Below are positions 20,543-30,297 of a stretch of DNA of 64,000 bases, piece by piece. The position numbers and the translations under genes were made by a program. This stretch comes from Candidatus Woesearchaeota archaeon (GTDB lineage Archaea; Nanobdellota; Nanobdellia; Woesearchaeales; DSVV01). The notes under the pieces were generated by a model. That model was not told where the DNA came from. It did not search any database and saw nothing but the letters and a program-made list of their open reading frames with translations. Numbering within the stretch: position 1 is the stretch's first letter; every line of letters starts with the position of its first letter. The DNA lies in contig JACRPI010000005.1 in assembly GCA_016214075.1 (NCBI GenBank), positions 2,662 through 66,661 of the forward strand, in the 5' to 3' direction.

Positions 20543-22258
20543 GTGATAATCGTGACAAATATAGTAACGCTGAAAAAAGCAACAAAAGAGTCCTTGCATA
20601 TTGTTGGAGAAAAAGCAATACGTCTTGCAGTACTTTCGCAAAAATTCTCCGTTCCTCCCACATTCATCATCACAGCCACAGCGTTTGATCAATTTCTCAC
20701 AAACAATCACATAAAAAAACAGGCAAAAGAAATGCTTGAGAAAATAGAAGAAGAGAATGAGACAAAAATACAAGAAGCAAGCGACGCGATAAAACTACTC
20801 ATCCTCAACGCGCCATTACCAGAAGAATTACGAGAAGAAGTTCATGACGCGTATTATGCGTTGAACATTGACGAAACACATTCTTTAAACGATCTGATGG
20901 AAACAGGCGAAGAACCAATAGTGGTTCTACGACCTTCTCCAATCCATGATGAACAAGCAAATCTACACGAATCTATGTTAGGAGTTCAAGGGATGCAAAA
21001 CATAGAAAATGCGATTCTCAATGTCTGGGCATCTTTTTACAATCCAGAAGCCATATCTGTAATGATTAAAAGTAAAATAGAAGAACAGAAAAAAGAAGAA
21101 CCCAAACAAACACAAAAAGAAACGCAGTTTGCGATCATCGTCCAAAAAATGATAGACAGCCAAGCGTCAGGAGTAATTCACACGAGTTACAAAATGAATA
21201 AAGAAGAAGTGCTTATTCTCGGCTGTAAAGGATTAGGAACAGCGTTAAATTCAGGATTAATCAGTCTAGACAAATATTTCATCACAAAAAAATCATTGAA
21301 CATTGCGTCGATTGAAGTAGGCAAACAGCCATTCATGTTAGAACGAGATTTTGACACCAATAAAATTGCGAAAATTTACATGCAAGAAGAATACAGTAAA
21401 AAGCAGAAAATTACAGACAGGCATATTGGCGAGCTCACGTTGCTCGGAAACACAATAGAACAAATATTTGGCAAGCCGCAGGAAGTGGATTTCGCGATTT
21501 ACAAAGAAGTAATTTCTATTCTTGGCGCGAGAGACGCGGAATGGTACAAGGAGAGTCTGCAAAAAGCAGCGCAGCCACAAGAAGCAGCGCCGCGGTGGAA
21601 AGAGCCAACGCCAGAAGAAGTAGAACAAAAAGAAAAAGAAATATCAACTTCTATTACACACGAGCTTGAGCAGGATACGTTAGTGGTCAATGCATTAAGT
21701 GGAACGCAGCATATTTTAGGCGAATCGCCAGAAGCAGTACATCTTGTTTATCCAGAAGAGAGCATGGTCATCCAGGGAAACACTTCAAATGATCCAAATG
21801 ACATTAACGCGGTAATTCTGGGCATTGATTTCAATGCCGCGTTGAATGAAGTTACGCAGACAGCAGGCACAGAAATCGCGGCAGTGTCAGCGGCGATGAA
21901 TCCCGCGCAATCCCCCTCCCAAACAGCAGCTGTTATTCTTGAAAAGCAGATTCCTTCCATAATTACTGAAGCAGTAGAACAGGAAGCTGCGGAAGAAAAG
22001 CGAGAGGAAGAAGAAATAATCGCAGAACAAGTGCGAACAGTCCAAAAAAAAGAATTGTCTGCGTTTGAAAAAGCATCAGGAAATCTCATTATTCATTGTT
22101 TTAAAGAAGTAAAAGAAAAAATTCCAAAAGAACAGTGGGCAGCGTCTCCAGAGCTCCGCCACCTTGCGGTTCTTGCGCAGAATTTCTCACAAAAAAATGT
22201 CGCGCCAACGCCAGCGCAGGTGAAATTTGCGTTGGATGCGATGGAAAAGGTCAAATAA
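20543..22258 (+). CDS. PEP/pyruvate-binding (PPDK_N-like ATP-grasp) domain protein with low-complexity C-terminal region
   Basis: N-terminal similarity to the nucleotide-binding domain of PEP synthase/PPDK (IVGEKAIRLAVL...). No GGRTSHAA swivel-His motif. E/K/Q-rich tail. Confidence 0.6.
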   Translation: MIIVTNIVTLKKATKESLHIVGEKAIRLAVLSQKFSVPPTFIITATAFDQFLTNNHIKKQAKEMLEKIEEENETKIQEASDAIKLLILNAPLPEELREEVHDAYYALNIDETHSLNDLMETGEEPIVVLRPSPIHDEQANLHESMLGVQGMQNIENAILNVWASFYNPEAISVMIKSKIEEQKKEEPKQTQKETQFAIIVQKMIDSQASGVIHTSYKMNKEEVLILGCKGLGTALNSGLISLDKYFITKKSLNIASIEVGKQPFMLERDFDTNKIAKIYMQEEYSKKQKITDRHIGELTLLGNTIEQIFGKPQEVDFAIYKEVISILGARDAEWYKESLQKAAQPQEAAPRWKEPTPEEVEQKEKEISTSITHELEQDTLVVNALSGTQHILGESPEAVHLVYPEESMVIQGNTSNDPNDINAVILGIDFNAALNEVTQTAGTEIAAVSAAMNPAQSPSQTAAVILEKQIPSIITEAVEQEAAEEKREEEEIIAEQVRTVQKKELSAFEKASGNLIIHCFKEVKEKIPKEQWAASPELRHLAVLAQNFSQKNVAPTPAQVKFALDAMEKVK

Positions 22259-23778: not shown

Positions 23779-26700
23779 ATGAACACAAAAGCAACAAAAT
23801 TTATTCTCTGGTTTGATGAGTTAGGTATTGAAGACGTCCCAATCGTGGGCGGCAAAAACGCGTCGTTGGGTGAAATGTATAGAATTCTTGTTCCGCAAGG
23901 AGTACGGATCCCCAATGGCTTTGCGGTAACCGCGTACGCGTATCATTATCTTGTGGAGAAAGCAGGAATTAAAGCAAGTATCCAGCAAATTTTGAAAGGA
24001 TTAGATACACAGAATGTTTCTGATCTTGCGGAACGAGGGCATAAAGTACGAGAGATTATCAGAACCGCGAAGTTTCCAGAAGAGCTTGCGGTGGAAATCA
24101 TAGCGGCATATCAAAAGATGTGCAAGCTATATGGGAGCAGAACAGATGTCGCGGTGCGATCGAGCGCGACAGCAGAAGATTTGCCAGACGCGAGTTTTGC
24201 GGGCCAGCAGGAGACCTATCTGAATATTCGTGGAGACAGTGACTTGATTAACGCGTGTAAGAATTGTTTTGCGTCTCTCTTCACCAATCGTGCGATTTCC
24301 TACAGAGTGGACAAGGGCTTTGACCATTTTTCTATTGGATTAAGTATTGGTGTCCAGAAGATGGTGCGTAGCGATAAGGCGTGTTCTGGCGTTATGTTTT
24401 CAATTGATACAGAAACAGGATTTCAAAACGCGGTCTTCGTTACAGCGGCGTATGGTCTTGGAGAAACCGTCGTTCAGGGCGCAGTCAACCCAGATGAGTA
24501 TTATGTGTTTAAGCCAACATTAAAAACAGGGCATAAATCAATTTTATCAAAACGTGTTGGCGAGAAAAAAATAATGATGGTGTATAGTGATAAAGTGCAG
24601 CAGACAACAAAGACTGTCGCGGTTTCAGAAGACCAGCGAAAGAAATTCGTGCTCACTGATGATGAAATTTTAACCCTCTCAAAATGGGCGTGCATTATTG
24701 AAGATCATTATTCGCGAAAAGCAGGAAAGTTCAAACCAATGGATATGGAATGGGCAAAAGATGGCGTCACAAACCAATTATTTATTGTGCAGGCTCGTCC
24801 AGAAACAGTGCATTCACAACAGGATTTGACGCAGTTAAAAGAGTATGGGCTCGCGAAAAAAGGAAAAGTAGTGGTTATTGGAAAAGCGGTTGGCGAAAAG
24901 ATTGGTCAAGGAGCGGCGGCAATAATCAAGGATGTCAAGGATATTTCGCAGTTCAAGAAAGGGCAAGTTTTGGTCACAGAAATGACAGATCCGGATTGGG
25001 AACCAATTATGAAGATTGCGAGTGCGATTGTCACGAATAGTGGGGGGAGGACGTGTTTTCCAGCAGGCACTAAAATTTTAACAAATAAAGGATTTAGAAA
25101 TATTGAAGAGATTTATGACAATCATGAGGAGATTGAAGTTCCTTCGTTAAACAGGAAGACGCTCAAAGTAGAGTGGAAGCCGGTTATTGCTTCCATGAAA
25201 AGAAGAGCAGAAGTTATTGAAATTGAAACATCATTGACAGGGAGAATGAAGGGCAACACATTGCGGCTTACGCCAAATCATAAAATGCTCACCTTTAATG
25301 ATGCTCAATTAGTTGATAAAGAAATTCAACAGATGCTTCATGAACAGCAAATGCTTTTGTGTGCGCAAAAAATTCCAGCGCTTACAGAATCAACTGAAAA
25401 ACAAAAAGCACTAGCATACCTTTTAGGTGCAATAAGCACAGATGGGAGCATTTATACCTCTAGAACACATGGTGAAGTACAGTTTATTCAGAAAGAAACA
25501 GAAGAAAAAAAAGAATTTATTGAATATGTAAATACATGCTTAAATGAAACATACAATAAAGAGTTTAGCGTGTCAGTCAAAAAAACAAGTAGTGGAGAGA
25601 TTAGAGGAAAACCAGCGATTGGCAATGCGAATGCGTATCGCTGTTATAGCAAAGAGGTTGCGTATACGCTGCTTCGGGAACAGCAGACAATAACGCAAAC
25701 GCTCCTGAAAGCGGATGAATCTCTTATTTATTCTTTCCTTGCGGGAGTTATTGATGGCGATGGGTCATTAAGCGCAGAAAAAAATAGAATTAATATTTAT
25801 TGTTCTAAGGAATATCTGTTTCAGGCAATAATCGTGGGCTGCCTTAGAATTGGAATTGTTCCGCAAGCAACAGTAAACAGAACAATTTGGAACATCCAGA
25901 TTGTTGAAAAAGTAGATGAAATTTGTAAATGGACAAAAAGAGTTAAAGGGAAAGAAGAAAGAAAAAGAATAGGAACAAGATTTTTTAGTGCAAGGCAGCT
26001 TTTAGGAGGAAGCAAGTACATTGGACATTTCTCCACAAGTTTAGGTAAAAATCTTTTATTAGATGCAAAAAAAATAGATGCTGCAAAAAAGTTTCTTTCT
26101 CCAGAGTATGCGCAAAGAATTGAACATGTTTTACTATCAGATACAAGAATGCAGAGAGTTTCATTCGCTCATGATTGTGGTGAGCAGGATGTGTACAATA
26201 TTACTGTCGCGGATAATCATAACTATGTTGTCTTTACAGAGAGATATACTCCAGTTGTAGTCAATAACTGTCACGCGGCGATTGTCAGCAGAGAGTTAGG
26301 AGTCCCATGTGTCGTCGGAACAAATAATGGGACAGAAAAAATAAAGCAAGGTCAAAAAGTGACAGTAGACTGTTCGAGTGGCGATGAAGCAATCGTTTAT
26401 GATGGATTGTTGAAAATAAATGTTAAGGTCACGGATCTGAAAAAAATTCCAGAAACAAAAACAAAAATCATGATGAATCTTGCGGCGCCTGAGCAGGCGT
26501 TTGAGAAATCATTTTTGCCAAATAGCGGCGTGGGATTAGCGCGACAAGAGTTTATTATAAGTTCGTACATTAAAGTGCATCCAAAAGCGTTAATTCATTT
26601 TGATGAATTGAAAGATAAAAAGCTCAAAGAGGAGATTGAAGAAATAACATACAATTACAAAGATAAAAAGGAATTTTTTATTGACAAACTCAGCCAGGGC

Positions 26701-27402
26701 ATCGCGACAATTGGTGCAGCGTTTTATCCAAAAGATGTGATTGTCAGGATGAGTGACTTCAAGAGCAATGAGTATGCGAATCTTATTGGGGGTCATTTGT
26801 ATGAACCAAAGGAAGATAACCCAATGATTGGCTGGCGTGGCGCGTCTCGGTATTATACAGATTATCAGGAAGGATTTGAGTTAGAATGTAAAGCAATGAG
26901 AAGAGTCAGAGAAACAATTGGCTTGACCAATGTCAAAGTCATGATTCCGTTCTGTCGAACAATTGAAGAAGGGAAAAAAGTATTGGACGTCATGAAAAAA
27001 CAAGGACTGGTACAGGGCAAGAATGGCTTGCAGGTCTATGTGATGTGCGAAATCCCCTCTAATGTCATCTTGGCAGAAGAATTCCTCAGCATTTTTGATG
27101 GATTCTCGATTGGTTCAAATGATCTCACGCAACTCACGTTAGGAGTTGATCGTGATTCAGCGTTAGTCGCGCATGTCTATAACGAGAGCAACGAAGCGGT
27201 CAAGCTTCTTGTTCAGCGTGTTGTCCATGTCGCGAATAAAATGAAGAAGCACATGGGTTTCTGTGGGCAGGCGCCAAGCGATAATATCGAATTCGCGAAG
27301 TTCCTCGTCGAGTGTGGAATTGAGTCCATGTCTTTGAATCCAGATTCTGTGGTGAAGACAACGTTGGCAGTTGCGGATGTGGAGAGGAAAGTGAAGAGGT
27401 AA
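23779..27402 (+). CDS. ppsA: Phosphoenolpyruvate synthase (pyruvate, water dikinase) interrupted by a 405-aa LAGLIDADG intein
   Basis: Canonical PpsA N-terminus (WFDELGIEDVPIVGGKNASLGEMY), phospho-His motif GGRT|...|CHAAIVSRELGVPCVVG split by the insert, C-terminal PEP-binding TIM barrel. Confidence 0.9.
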   Translation: MNTKATKFILWFDELGIEDVPIVGGKNASLGEMYRILVPQGVRIPNGFAVTAYAYHYLVEKAGIKASIQQILKGLDTQNVSDLAERGHKVREIIRTAKFPEELAVEIIAAYQKMCKLYGSRTDVAVRSSATAEDLPDASFAGQQETYLNIRGDSDLINACKNCFASLFTNRAISYRVDKGFDHFSIGLSIGVQKMVRSDKACSGVMFSIDTETGFQNAVFVTAAYGLGETVVQGAVNPDEYYVFKPTLKTGHKSILSKRVGEKKIMMVYSDKVQQTTKTVAVSEDQRKKFVLTDDEILTLSKWACIIEDHYSRKAGKFKPMDMEWAKDGVTNQLFIVQARPETVHSQQDLTQLKEYGLAKKGKVVVIGKAVGEKIGQGAAAIIKDVKDISQFKKGQVLVTEMTDPDWEPIMKIASAIVTNSGGRTCFPAGTKILTNKGFRNIEEIYDNHEEIEVPSLNRKTLKVEWKPVIASMKRRAEVIEIETSLTGRMKGNTLRLTPNHKMLTFNDAQLVDKEIQQMLHEQQMLLCAQKIPALTESTEKQKALAYLLGAISTDGSIYTSRTHGEVQFIQKETEEKKEFIEYVNTCLNETYNKEFSVSVKKTSSGEIRGKPAIGNANAYRCYSKEVAYTLLREQQTITQTLLKADESLIYSFLAGVIDGDGSLSAEKNRINIYCSKEYLFQAIIVGCLRIGIVPQATVNRTIWNIQIVEKVDEICKWTKRVKGKEERKRIGTRFFSARQLLGGSKYIGHFSTSLGKNLLLDAKKIDAAKKFLSPEYAQRIEHVLLSDTRMQRVSFAHDCGEQDVYNITVADNHNYVVFTERYTPVVVNNCHAAIVSRELGVPCVVGTNNGTEKIKQGQKVTVDCSSGDEAIVYDGLLKINVKVTDLKKIPETKTKIMMNLAAPEQAFEKSFLPNSGVGLARQEFIISSYIKVHPKALIHFDELKDKKLKEEIEEITYNYKDKKEFFIDKLSQGIATIGAAFYPKDVIVRMSDFKSNEYANLIGGHLYEPKEDNPMIGWRGASRYYTDYQEGFELECKAMRRVRETIGLTNVKVMIPFCRTIEEGKKVLDVMKKQGLVQGKNGLQVYVMCEIPSNVILAEEFLSIFDGFSIGSNDLTQLTLGVDRDSALVAHVYNESNEAVKLLVQRVVHVANKMKKHMGFCGQAPSDNIEFAKFLVECGIESMSLNPDSVVKTTLAVADVERKVKR
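25054..26268 (+). mobile_element. Intein in ppsA (Cys1 ... terminal Asn, +1 Cys) with LAGLIDADG homing-endonuclease domain
   Basis: Begins CFPAGTKILT right after GGRT and ends VVVNN before CHAAIV. Two dodecapeptide motifs LAYLLGAISTDGSI and FLAGVIDGDGSL. Confidence 0.85.
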
Positions 27403-27404
27403 GA

Positions 27405-27734
27405 ATGAGCATCCTCGACACCATTTTGGACACATTTCGAAGTCCAGATCCTAAAAGAGTCAAAGAAAGAATAGTGATACAGATTCAAGACTATCAAGCA
27501 ACAAAAGCAGAGCTCCAAGAACAAAGGCGAAAATTACAGCTTGCAATACTTAATTTAAATAGAAGATTAATGCATCTGCGGAAAAACAATCCTTCTCTAT
27601 TAGCAGAAATCAGAAGTGTCAGTAGGCAAAAGACAGATGTAGAATATCAAGATCTTGAAGTAAAAACAGCTATTGAAAAACTAGATAGAGAAATTGCTCA
27701 ATTAACTGCAAGGTATCGTCAGGTAGCGGCCTAA
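27405..27734 (+). CDS. Coiled-coil hypothetical protein (immediately after ppsA)
   Basis: 109 aa, starts 3 bp after the ppsA stop. Confidence 0.45.
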   Translation: MSILDTILDTFRSPDPKRVKERIVIQIQDYQATKAELQEQRRKLQLAILNLNRRLMHLRKNNPSLLAEIRSVSRQKTDVEYQDLEVKTAIEKLDREIAQLTARYRQVAA

Positions 27735-27774
27735 ACAACAAATCATTTAAACAGCGCAGCCCTTCGTTTTTCTC

Positions 27775-30297
27775 ATGGAATTCATCGCGGACATGCACAT
27801 TCACAGCAAATATTCACGAGCATGCTCAAAAGATCTCACCATTCTCAATCTCGAAAAGTGGGCAAAAATAAAAGGCGTCAATCTCTTAGGCACAGGAGAT
27901 TTTACCCATCCAAAATGGATTCAGGAACTCAAATCCTCTTTAACAGAAACAGAAAAAGACAGTGGGTTCTTTCAAACAGCGACAGGATTTAATTTCATTC
28001 TGCAAACAGAGATTTCCTTAATTTACACGCATAATAACAAAGGCAGAAAAATTCACAATCTCATTTTCGCGCCAAGTTTTCAGGCAGTGGACGAAATCAC
28101 AAAATTCTTGCTCACCAGAGGAAGAGTAGACTACGATGGCAGACCAATTTTCAAAATTCCTTGTCCAGAATTAGTTGAAAAAATGAAAGCAATAGATGAG
28201 CGCATCCAGGTTATCCCCGCGCATTGTCTTCTACCCAATGAAAAAGTTGTTTGTAATCCAAAAGCAAAAGCCATCTCTAATATAAAAGTAGGTGATATGG
28301 TTTTAACACACAAAGGTAATTTCAAAAAAATAAAACAGATATTCAATAGGCAATATAAAGGTAAAGCTTATAAAATTCAGCCTTATTATTTTAGAGAAGG
28401 AGTAGCGGTAACTGAAGAGCACCCATTTCTCGCCATAAAACCTGTTAAAAACTGTAGTTTTGTAGGAGGGCTCTGTAAACCTAATAGTACTGCTCAGGGA
28501 AAACATAGTTGTACTAAAAAACATTATAATTATTATAAATCAGAATGGATACAGGCAAAAAATTTAGAAAAAAATGATATTATATTATATCCCCGAATTA
28601 AAGAAATAAAAGATTCAAAAAATATTAATTTATCGGATTTTATAGAAAAGTGTAATTATAAAATCTCTGAACTTACCATAATCCCAAAATCAGGAAGACA
28701 AGATAAACCTATAAAGAATATCATAGAAACAGATAATGATTTCTGTCGGCTTGTTGGATATTTCTTAGCAGAGGGTTATATTAATAAAAAAAATAGTGTA
28801 TTACAATTTTCCTTTGGTCCTACTGAAAAAGGGTATATAGACGATGTCACTCTTCTCATGGAAAGATGTTTTGGGATAAAAATAACAAAAGTGAGGGAAA
28901 GAAATGGGTATGAATTATATTTCTTCTCTAAGCCATTAGTGGAGATGTTTGAAACTTTATTTTATGAAAAAGAAAAACCTAAAAGAGCATTTTCTAAACA
29001 GCTCCCTCAATGGATGCTCTATCTGCCATTATCTAAACAAGCTGAAATTTTAAGGGGGTGGTGGAGAGGTGATGCTGGATGGACAACTTCTGAGGTTCTT
29101 GCAGAAGAAATGAAAATTATTTGTTTACGGTTAGGCATACTTCCTTCCATCTCTAGAATAACTAAAGAGACGCATAATAAGAAACCACATCTTTTAGGTG
29201 AAAGGACAATAACTGCAAAAAATGATTTTATGATCTTTGAAAGATTATCCTTTTACAGAGATGAATTTTCGTTACTGGAAGATGCATCATTTCATAAATT
29301 CAAATCAAAATTAGAGAGAAAACATGGATGGATGGATGATCATTATTTTTATATTCCTATTAAAAAAATAGAAACTTTTGATTACTCGGGGTTCGTCTAT
29401 AATTTAGAAGTCGAAGACGATAATTCTTATGTTACTTCGGCAGCAACAGTACATAATTGCTGGACACCATGGTTTGGCTTATACGGCGCGAATGGTGGTT
29501 TCGATAGCATAAAAGACGCGTTTCAGGATCAGATAAAAAATGTCCATGCAGTTGAAACTGGTCTCTCAAGCAATCCTGAAATGAATTGGCGCTTGAAAGA
29601 GTTGGACAACATCAATCTCGTAAGCTTCTCAGACACGCATAGCTTTTGGCCGTGGAGATTGGGAAGAGAAGCGACAGTTCTCAATATCGAACCAACGTTC
29701 AACGCGCTCGCAAAAGCGTTGGAAACAGGAAATGGTTTGAAAGAAACGATTGAAGTCAATCCAAATCTTGGAAAATATCACATGACTGGACATAGAGTTT
29801 GCAATGTTTCTTTCCATCCAGATGAAGCAAAAAAGCTGAATGATGTCTGTCCAAAGTGCGGCAACAAATTAACAGTTGGTGTTGATCAGCGCATTGAACA
29901 ACTCGCGGATCGTCCGTTAGGATACAAGCCAGAAAACGCGAAACCGTTTCGCTCTTTAATTCCAATCTCAGAACTTCTTGCGCAATTTCATGGAAAAGCA
30001 GTTGCGACAAAGAAAGTTTGGGAAGAGTACAGAAAATTAGTAACAGACAAACAATCCGAATATGATGTGCTTCTTCGAATGCCAATAGACGAGATTGCCA
30101 AAGCAACAAGCGCGGAGTTTGCAGAGATCATGGAAAGAAACAGAGCAGGAAAAATAAACGTCAAAGGCGGCTATGATGGTGTCTATGGTGTTCCATTATT
30201 GGATGAGAAAGCAGAAGAGAAATATCAGGAAGAGCACCAGAACGTGATGGCAAGTATGAAAAAAAAGCAGACAGGATTGCAGGAGTTCTTGAGTTAG
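27775..30297 (+). CDS. endoQ: Endonuclease Q (EndoQ, PHP-domain nuclease with C-terminal zinc ribbon) interrupted by a 411-aa intein
   Basis: N-terminus MEFIADMHIHSKYSRACS (PHP motif); exteins VIPAH|...|CWTPWFGLYGANGGF; C-terminal CPKCGNKL zinc finger. Extein length ~429 aa matches EndoQ. Confidence 0.7.
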   Translation: MEFIADMHIHSKYSRACSKDLTILNLEKWAKIKGVNLLGTGDFTHPKWIQELKSSLTETEKDSGFFQTATGFNFILQTEISLIYTHNNKGRKIHNLIFAPSFQAVDEITKFLLTRGRVDYDGRPIFKIPCPELVEKMKAIDERIQVIPAHCLLPNEKVVCNPKAKAISNIKVGDMVLTHKGNFKKIKQIFNRQYKGKAYKIQPYYFREGVAVTEEHPFLAIKPVKNCSFVGGLCKPNSTAQGKHSCTKKHYNYYKSEWIQAKNLEKNDIILYPRIKEIKDSKNINLSDFIEKCNYKISELTIIPKSGRQDKPIKNIIETDNDFCRLVGYFLAEGYINKKNSVLQFSFGPTEKGYIDDVTLLMERCFGIKITKVRERNGYELYFFSKPLVEMFETLFYEKEKPKRAFSKQLPQWMLYLPLSKQAEILRGWWRGDAGWTTSEVLAEEMKIICLRLGILPSISRITKETHNKKPHLLGERTITAKNDFMIFERLSFYRDEFSLLEDASFHKFKSKLERKHGWMDDHYFYIPIKKIETFDYSGFVYNLEVEDDNSYVTSAATVHNCWTPWFGLYGANGGFDSIKDAFQDQIKNVHAVETGLSSNPEMNWRLKELDNINLVSFSDTHSFWPWRLGREATVLNIEPTFNALAKALETGNGLKETIEVNPNLGKYHMTGHRVCNVSFHPDEAKKLNDVCPKCGNKLTVGVDQRIEQLADRPLGYKPENAKPFRSLIPISELLAQFHGKAVATKKVWEEYRKLVTDKQSEYDVLLRMPIDEIAKATSAEFAEIMERNRAGKINVKGGYDGVYGVPLLDEKAEEKYQEEHQNVMASMKKKQTGLQEFLS
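28225..29457 (+). mobile_element. Intein in the EndoQ gene (Cys1 ... His-Asn, +1 Cys) with degenerate LAGLIDADG-type endonuclease domain
   Basis: Starts CLLPNEKVV and ends SAATVHN before CWTPW. LVGYFLAEGY and ILRGWWRGDAGW are dodecapeptide-like motifs. Confidence 0.7.

Follow-up and report, generated by a model that had tools for sequence, protein, structure and literature searches.

Two neighbouring genes in a 64,000-nucleotide stretch of DNA from a Candidatus Woesearchaeota archaeon, an ultra-small archaeon of the DPANN type (NCBI GenBank assembly GCA_016214075.1, contig JACRPI010000005.1, positions 2,662 to 66,661; this whole stretch is called the window below) are each interrupted by a long in-frame insert, and the locus raises the question of what these inserts are, whether they are still mobile and whether their proximity has a common cause. 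The first gene, ppsA (23779–27402), is identified by its open reading frame (ORF) and domain profiles as encoding phosphoenolpyruvate (PEP) synthase, or pyruvate, water dikinase, as a precursor of 1207 amino acids including the insert at 25054–26268 (405 amino acids, precursor residues 426–830). The second gene (27775–30297) encodes an 840-amino-acid precursor of the TIGR00375/PF27218 'MJ0043_C' family that matches PfuEndoQ, and its insert spans 28225–29457 (411 amino acids, precursor residues 151–561). All features are on the + strand and are given in window positions. It is highly probable that both inserts are genuine class-1 inteins, each equipped with a LAGLIDADG homing endonuclease. A preliminary description of the locus had proposed LAGLIDADG-type inteins with exactly these extents; our recomputed borders are identical to the base and both inserts match the intein profiles of Pfam and NCBIfam.

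The borders read from the translation are AIVTNSGGRT/CFPAGTKIL...TPVVVNN/CHAAIVS for ppsA and RIQVIPAH/CLLPNEK...SAATVHN/CWTPWFG for EndoQ, where a slash marks each splice junction. As had been described earlier, the ppsA intein thus ends in Asn-Asn and the EndoQ intein in His-Asn. Cys1 and a +1 Cys are the nucleophiles in both. The two inserts exceed the Pfam gathering cut-offs for Intein_splicing (E = 2.8e-12 and 3.6e-10) and for LAGLIDADG_3 (E = 2.5e-8 and 2.7e-8), and in NCBIfam they match intein_Nterm and intein_Cterm as well as the intein portions of models for intein-containing proteins.

The functional elements are arranged along each insert in the expected order. In the ppsA intein, Cys1 (25054–25056) is followed by block B, TPNH (25270–25281), the two endonuclease motifs LAYLLGAISTDG (25411–25446) and FLAGVIDGDG (25735–25764), block F (26188–26232) and the terminal Asn-Asn (26263–26268); the +1 Cys, a splice nucleophile, and the phospho-His of the CHAA motif then occupy 26269–26274, with both the Cys and the His present in 117 of 117 homologues. 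In the EndoQ intein the corresponding elements are Cys1 (28225–28227), block B, TEEH (28411–28422), the motifs LVGYFLAEGY (28750–28779) and LRGWWRGDAG (29050–29079), block F (29395–29430) and the His-Asn end (29452–29457). Residues Cys1, Thr63, His66, His410, Asn411 and the +1 Cys are invariant among 121 EndoQ intein homologues (Thr63 and His66 in 66), and all 121 end in His-Asn. For the ppsA intein, Thr73, His76, Asn405 and the +1 Cys are found in 117/117 sequences, each of which also has Cys1 at the N-terminal junction.

The fold of the EndoQ intein was modelled with AlphaFold2 from an alignment of 66 sequences (pLDDT 94.3, pTM 0.92). The best Foldseek matches of this model in the PDB are inteins with endonuclease domains, namely TliVMA (PDB entry 7qsu, E = 1.7e-18), PI-PkoII (the Tko Pol-2 intein, PDB entry 2cw7), PhoVMA, PI-SceI (PDB entry 1vde) and PI-PfuI (PDB entry 1dq3). 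They share with it the combined Hint and LAGLIDADG architecture (E = 1e-17 to 1e-18, TM scores of about 0.55–0.68) at 11–15% sequence identity. These inteins reside in other host proteins and at other target sites, and the EndoQ intein differs from them further by a conserved Cys-rich loop (Cys77, Cys84 and Cys96). Free LAGLIDADG enzymes (I-DmoI and I-Tsp061I), mini-inteins and hedgehog Hint domains follow lower in the list of matches. For the ppsA intein, the Hint fold is assigned through profile matches (Intein_splicing, intein_Nterm and the NrdJ-1 intein, PDB entry 8ubs) and the endonuclease fold through the LAGLIDADG_3 profile.

The Cys-rich loop of the EndoQ intein (intein residues 77–96, 28453–28512) lies in the N-terminal splicing region and has the consensus K-x-C-S-x3-G-x-C-K-P-x-C-x5-C-K. 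Cys77, Cys84 and Cys96 are conserved in at least 90% of the sequences, while the window copy has a Ser for the third Cys and a His nearby. The loop is the least confident region of the model (pLDDT 72–89) and may form a small zinc knuckle.

The host enzymes are readily recognized once the inserts are set aside. In PpsA, Pfam identifies the PPDK_N, PEP-utilizers and PEP-utilizers_C domains, and the sequences flanking the insert match the PEP synthase equivalogs NF005057 (1176.6 bits, cut-off 598) and TIGR01418 (1150.6 bits, cut-off 739.75), each in two stretches that are interrupted at the insert. The mature products after splicing are 802 amino acids (PpsA) and 429 amino acids (EndoQ). The spliced 429-residue EndoQ extein is colinear with residues 5–401 of PfuEndoQ (PDB entries 5zb8 and 7k30; E = 3e-55) and aligns without a gap at the splice junction (IPAH-CWTPWF in the window, GPAH-AFTPWT in PfuEndoQ). 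It also matches TIGR00375 with E = 5.7e-57, although its 193.8 bits are under the equivalog cut-off of 326.6 bits.

Both inteins interrupt catalytic motifs. The ppsA intein is inserted one residue ahead of the His of the CHAA motif, which in the family of PEP-utilizing enzymes serves as the phospho-carrier. All Zn ligands of EndoQ are retained in the window protein (His8, His10, Glu79, His94, His150 and Asp620 in precursor numbering; His622 is present as well), and they correspond to His8, His10, Glu76, His84, His139 and Asp193 of PfuEndoQ (PMC5961232). The intein sits in the PHP domain between VIPAH and CWTPWF, as noticed before, directly behind His150 (28222–28224), its −1 residue and the equivalent of the Zn ligand His139; at +3, within the stretch comprising the +1 Cys and the WTPWF motif (29458–29475), follows the equivalent of Thr142. 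In PfuEndoQ, His139 and Thr142 line the lesion pocket and the H139A mutant loses nearly all activity (PMC5961232). The Zn ligands and the lesion-pocket Thr are thus shared with PfuEndoQ and TkoEndoQ (PF1551 and TK0887), from which the window EndoQ differs in its intein, in having Cys rather than Ala at +1, and in a first zinc-ribbon ligand that is His (GHRVC) and not Cys. Only the Pfu and Tko enzymes are known to cleave on the 5' side of deoxyuridine, deoxyinosine, deoxyxanthosine and apurinic/apyrimidinic sites (PMC4357722).

In ppsA, an uninterrupted allele exists in a close relative. In a protein search, 116 of the 120 nearest clusters carry an insert at GG[RK]T/C...N/CH[AS]A and four do not. 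One of these four, an intein-free PpsA of 802 amino acids (P0132, on contig L001), is identical to the spliced window extein at 789 of 802 positions. The two coding sequences are 94.4% identical, with 136 mismatches of which 122 are at third codon positions. Contig L001 has an exact empty site (...AGA ACG/TGT CAC...) whose break matches window positions 25053/26269; around the insertion point it reads AATAGCGGTGGCAGAACG/TGTCACGCAGCGATTGTC. This is a natural intein-minus allele, and it offers a natural empty target for tests of the specificity of the homing endonuclease.

Five synonymous differences are found at the insertion point between the intein-bearing and intein-free ppsA sequences (window 25039–25053 versus L001 1673–1687): AGT/AGC, GGG/GGT, GGG/GGC and AGG/AGA, plus GCG/GCA just downstream. 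Considered as a co-conversion tract or a difference in target site, this cluster is not significant by a rough estimate that treats it as five successive codons of four- or six-fold degeneracy, takes a third-position divergence of 15% and allows for all positions in the gene.

For EndoQ, the empty site is seen at a greater distance. When cluster representatives were searched exhaustively with the C-extein, 2137 homologues came up, and the junction was read in the best 149. In 139 of these it is uninterrupted (PAH-x-WTP[WHYF]F), residue x being Ile in 108, Val in 16, Ala in 13, and Leu and Ser in one each, and never Cys. All intein-bearing sequences (121 of 121), on the other hand, have Cys at +1. 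Since the +1 Cys occurs only together with the intein, the sampled intein-free alleles do not stem from recent precise deletion, and this codon must be co-converted during homing. EndoQ proteins of Thermococcales (the top 120 matches to PfuEndoQ, all from this order) are about 420 amino acids long and have no insert.

These empty sites also bear on the idea that the EndoQ insert is a lineage-specific accessory domain that is retained in the mature protein. All of the 120 nearest homologues carry the insert, and fixation throughout a clade can mimic a clade-specific domain. We nevertheless give this idea practically no credence. Cys1, TxxH, His-Asn and the +1 Cys stand at the exact borders, the Intein_splicing and LAGLIDADG models match, the predicted structure is that of a full Hint-plus-LAGLIDADG intein, and the insert separates a Zn-ligand His from the lesion-pocket Thr. 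Nor does the insert align with extein sequence of orthologues, as it should if it were an ordinary part of the enzyme: 139 of the 149 representatives, and all EndoQ proteins of Thermococcales, read through the junction without it.

With both inserts taken as inteins, standard class-1 chemistry suggests how they would be removed. Each intein would be translated in frame within its host protein and would have to excise itself before the enzyme could be active. An N-to-S acyl shift at Cys1, helped by the Thr-x-x-His of block B, would be followed by attack of the +1 Cys to give a branched intermediate, by cyclization of the terminal Asn with release of the intein, and by an S-to-N shift that restores the peptide bond. 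Splicing would thereby re-form GGRT-CHAA with its phospho-carrier His in PpsA, and PAH-CWTPWF with its Zn-ligand His and lesion-pocket Thr in EndoQ; before splicing, both active sites would be physically split. The freed inteins would be expected to act as site-specific endonucleases that cut an intein-free allele at the codon boundary where the intein would be inserted; with the intein-bearing copy as the template for repair, the element would then spread by homing.

The endonuclease domains appear well maintained. The EndoQ motifs read G-Y-[YF]-L-[AS]-E-G, with Glu in 118/121 sequences, and G-W-W-R-G-D-x-G, with Asp in 120/121, and they are near-invariant although the 121 homologues share just 45–78% identity. 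Both align with the LAGLIDADG motifs of PI-PkoII (E = 5.6e-9 for the endonuclease domain). The ppsA motifs end in ...STDG and ...DGDG, each with Asp in 116 of 117 sequences. The catalytic acidic pairs (Glu/Asp in EndoQ, Asp/Asp in ppsA) are thus intact in both window inteins and retained in at least 97% of the homologues. Compared with its closest relative (L100, 78% amino-acid identity), the EndoQ endonuclease domain has a proportion of nonsynonymous differences (pN) of 0.135 and of synonymous differences (pS) of 0.513, corresponding to an omega of about 0.17; for the ppsA endonuclease domain, compared with the syntenic relative L002, pN is 0.116 and pS is 0.683. The exteins, with omega of about 0.04–0.06, are under stronger constraint than the endonuclease domains, although these ratios are only semi-quantitative because the synonymous divergence (dS) of the exteins is at or near saturation. 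Such strong constraint, together with the retained Zn ligands of EndoQ, implies that the host enzymes function, and thus that splicing presumably works.

Several lines of evidence concern mobility. The ppsA intein shows a presence/absence polymorphism at 94% nucleotide identity (window versus L001). For EndoQ, the identity of two exteins says little about that of their inteins (Pearson 0.35, Spearman 0.17): the protein of L002 (P0003) is 77% identical in its extein and 47% in its intein, while another homologue (P0002) is 52% identical in its extein and 68% in its intein. Against L100, intein dS is 0.87 and extein dS is at least 1.9. The GC content at third codon positions (GC3) of the inteins is below that of the host exteins (0.277 versus 0.43–0.45 and 0.214 versus 0.41), with an overall GC minimum of about 0.24–0.28 at 28471–28839 in the EndoQ intein, and the contrast between intein and extein recurs in L100. 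Taken together, the polymorphism, the decoupled identities, dS and GC3 fit elements still moving horizontally.

A number of observations weigh against this picture of two self-splicing and mobile inteins. Splicing and DNA cleavage are, for both, predictions from sequence. The ppsA intein is without the penultimate His that normally aids Asn cyclization, as is its whole family. The EndoQ motifs stray from the textbook LAGLIDADG consensus, the second ending in D-A-G and not D-G. A close EndoQ allele free of the intein did not turn up, as all of the 120 nearest clusters carry it; current homing targets in this lineage are therefore not evident, and the purifying selection on the EndoQ endonuclease could have another cause. 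The inference from dS that the EndoQ intein is younger than its host gene is also rather weak, given the saturation and the AT-rich composition of the intein, which lowers its saturation ceiling.

With regard to the missing His, the penultimate residue among the 117 ppsA inteins is Asn in 70, Cys in 33 (mostly cyanobacterial), Glu in nine, Asp in three and Lys in one, and it is never His. The Asn-Asn end is a trait of the allele family and not a lesion of the window copy. A penultimate His is common in inteins and not obligatory; Chen, Benner and Perler are said to have found in 2000 that inteins without it are able to splice.

The preliminary description had raised the possibility that the dodecapeptide motifs of EndoQ are degenerate and its endonuclease is decaying. 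In a fuller form of this view, the endonuclease is decaying or inactive and the intein is a fixed and vertically inherited remnant that is kept as precise loss is difficult. The non-canonical motifs LVGYFLAEGY and LRGWWRGDAG and the lack of a near empty allele favour this view, as does the absence of LAGLIDADG_3 from the precomputed annotations of roughly half of the listed EndoQ homologues. The unusual motifs are, however, the norm of the family: motifs and acidic residues are near-invariant and align with those of PI-PkoII, pN is well below pS and the domain is modelled with confidence. There is not a single mini-intein derivative among the 121 EndoQ inteins (345–419 amino acids long), and the decoupled identities of intein and extein require horizontal movement. 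Decay thus appears unlikely, and that part of the earlier description is not upheld; we favour an endonuclease that is kept intact by selection.

A further possibility, compatible with two genuine inteins, is that they have been co-opted as post-translational switches, for example redox switches acting through Cys1 and the +1 Cys, which gate PEP synthase and EndoQ. This would account for the near-fixation of the EndoQ intein, which is present in all of the 120 nearest clusters and in two domains of life. Both inteins sit exactly at catalytic histidines, where an unspliced precursor is necessarily inactive; the EndoQ intein has its conserved Cys-rich insert, and the +1 Cys of EndoQ accompanies the intein only. 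On the other hand, a retained endonuclease and horizontal movement fit ordinary selfish persistence, and selfish inteins generally insert at active-site motifs, which are conserved homing targets. We regard co-option as quite unlikely.

Is the proximity of the two inteins meaningful? They show no significant similarity to each other; the best BLASTP match between them covers 25 residues with E = 0.018. L002 (GCA_053531335.1), the closest genome, shares with the window the gene order PPDK_N protein, methyltransferase, ppsA, EndoQ, ..., response regulator, and in it ppsA and EndoQ both contain inteins. A scan for the EndoQ splice junction, described below, gave 97 loci (95 of them EndoQ) in the GTDB genomes, and in none of the stretches, of up to 8 kb, is ppsA near EndoQ. 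No inteins were found in the ten largest other ORFs of the window, and no tRNAs in the window. The preliminary description had raised the question of local homing-endonuclease traffic. Such traffic could consist in a shared or linked acquisition, or in collateral spread from one gene into its neighbours. It would be suited by two inteins that lie within 6.5 kb, both with GC3 well under that of their host genes and both present in the syntenic relative. Yet the inteins are unrelated, each is found at an allelic site of its own in hundreds of genomes, the ten other large ORFs scanned are free of inteins and ppsA adjoins EndoQ at 0 of 97 loci. Their histories differ too, the ppsA intein being polymorphic (L001) and the EndoQ intein fixed in near relatives. 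Local traffic is therefore very improbable, and the adjacency is best read as a coincidence of lineage-specific synteny and not as a sign of shared history.

The ppsA intein belongs to a known type. It splits GGRT/CHAA, which the preliminary description had recognized as an established PEP synthase site, and this site is given as GG[TRM]T/CHAA in prokaryotes (PMC10710043). The window intein agrees with the PEP synthase inteins in host enzyme, site, Cys1/+1 Cys chemistry and LAGLIDADG endonuclease. Nothing essential differs, its penultimate Asn being the majority state. The 'Mja PEP' intein of Methanocaldococcus jannaschii MJ0542 belongs to the same group, presumably with Phe as its penultimate residue. 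The hosts in our ppsA set are DPANN archaea and many cyanobacteria.

The allele is common in cyanobacteria (P0209–P0240), including Nostocales, Crocosphaera, Synechococcus PCC 6312 and others. Cyanobacterial PpsA proteins are about 60% identical to the window protein in their exteins and about 49–51% in their inteins, which hints at transfer of ppsA, of its intein or of both between domains.

The EndoQ insertion point of the window, which we call site a, is occupied very widely. All of the 120 nearest EndoQ clusters in a word-indexed search carry an insert at the identical site. A junction scan of one genome per GTDB species with a DNA pattern encoding HN/C[WM]TPWF gave 97 loci (L003–L099), and at 95 of these tblastn places homologues of EndoQ segments at the match, which puts the site-a intein in at least 95 GTDB species; where the stretch covers the junctions, the EndoQ N-extein, intein and C-extein abut in frame. 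By their titles, the archaeal hosts are Woese-, Pace-, Nano-, Micr-, Aenigmat- and Parvarchaeota and Altarchaeum. The bacterial hosts include many members of the candidate phyla radiation (CPR)/Patescibacteria (L008–L022 are CPR), among them a complete Nealsonbacteria chromosome (L034, CP179888.1), and Omnitrophota (L004, L025 and L049). A few metagenome-assembled genomes with the intein are labelled Gammaproteobacteria, Planctomycetes, Methanosarcinales or Nitrososphaerales; those with the labels Gammaproteobacteria, Methanosarcinales and Nitrososphaerales may be binning errors. Identity to the window intein is similar in archaea and bacteria (about 37–59%), and from these comparisons the EndoQ gene together with its intein would evidently have crossed the boundary between the two domains.

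EndoQ is thus common in DPANN and CPR genomes, although the cited literature on the enzyme describes its distribution as narrow (Thermococcales plus some methanogens and some bacteria), and in the relatives of the window lineage it is nearly always split by one intein at the catalytic His. In the literature searched, no paper links EndoQ with inteins. The earlier remark that no EndoQ intein had been described holds to this extent, although the allele is abundant in databases. Neither intein is new, as both types abound in public sequence data; what is missing is a description under the EndoQ name, the biological value of which is modest and which leaves the general view of inteins unchanged.

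The intein may even have been catalogued already. PF27218 'MJ0043_C' is annotated both on homologues of the window EndoQ and on the characterized Thermococcales enzymes (as 'TIGR00375 family protein'), which makes MJ0043, presumably the host of the InBase intein 'Mja Hyp-1', a member of the same host family. The TIGR00375 profile itself appears to carry a trace of an intein. On the full EndoQ precursor, residues 421–805 match profile positions 2–372, so that the match begins in the intein tail and runs into the C-extein. The isolated tail (last 141 amino acids, 29035–29457) matches about the first 134 profile positions with E = 1.2e-10, and with the intein left in place the full precursor reaches 231.8 bits, as against 193.8 bits for the spliced protein. 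The ppsA intein and the inteins at two other EndoQ sites (b and c, see below) give no match to this profile. The model thus appears to include intein residues contributed by a seed member with a homologous intein at site a. The EndoQ site-a intein very probably corresponds to the catalogued MJ0043 intein. 'Mja Hyp-1' entered the catalogue as part of a 'hypothetical protein' of M. jannaschii, well before the definition of EndoQ in 2015. The GTDB scan found no Methanocaldococcus genome with the exact HN/C[WM]TPWF coding pattern, so that the junction sequence of MJ0043 must differ if its site is the same.

Other positions in EndoQ are occupied as well. At site b, an intein-like insert reads ETGLS/C...GN/SDPxMNW (P0329, P0090, L071 and L077), and in L071 and L077 it is a second EndoQ insert located about 1.2 kb past the site-a junction. 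Site c lies directly behind the equivalent of His195 (SDAH/CVHPD...HN/S(F)WPWRLGRE; P0241, P0287 and P0268), site d is IEVPP/CFSPE...GQ/SYGKYH (P0265) and site e is inside the CPKC zinc ribbon (...DR/C...VHN/CGKPL; P0245). Some proteins contain two inteins (P0090, 1204 amino acids, and P0268, 1331 amino acids). We suggest, tentatively and at somewhat less than even chances, that EndoQ is an unrecognized hot-spot protein for inteins, with site a near-fixed in DPANN, shared with CPR and Omnitrophota and bearing an endonuclease that is under selection and moves horizontally, and with at least four further sites (b–e) that fall in other motifs of the active site or the zinc ribbon. If this is true, and new under the EndoQ name, EndoQ would provide a new and very widely sampled system for intein homing between episymbiotic archaea and bacteria, and perhaps also an example of DNA repair gated by an intein.

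Most of the best-scoring EndoQ-family representatives (P0256–P0389) are 950–1370 amino acids long. Their EndoQ part is N-terminal, the C-extein matching at about residues 160–420, and is followed by a long C-terminal extension; these may be fusion proteins.

For annotation, both window genes are better called intein-containing ppsA and endoQ than oversized 'hypothetical' proteins. Between them lies an ORF of 109 amino acids (27405–27734) that is predicted to form a coiled coil and is part of neither intein; it gives weak Pfam hits of coiled-coil type and has no family assignment. A 109-amino-acid gene also follows ppsA in L001 and does not do so in L002. Upstream of ppsA, an ORF of 571 amino acids (20543–22258) contains a PPDK_N (ATP-grasp) domain only, with a long acidic tail of low complexity. 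It may represent a free-standing paralogue of the N-terminal domain of PpsA, and L002 has a counterpart of 514 amino acids at the same position.

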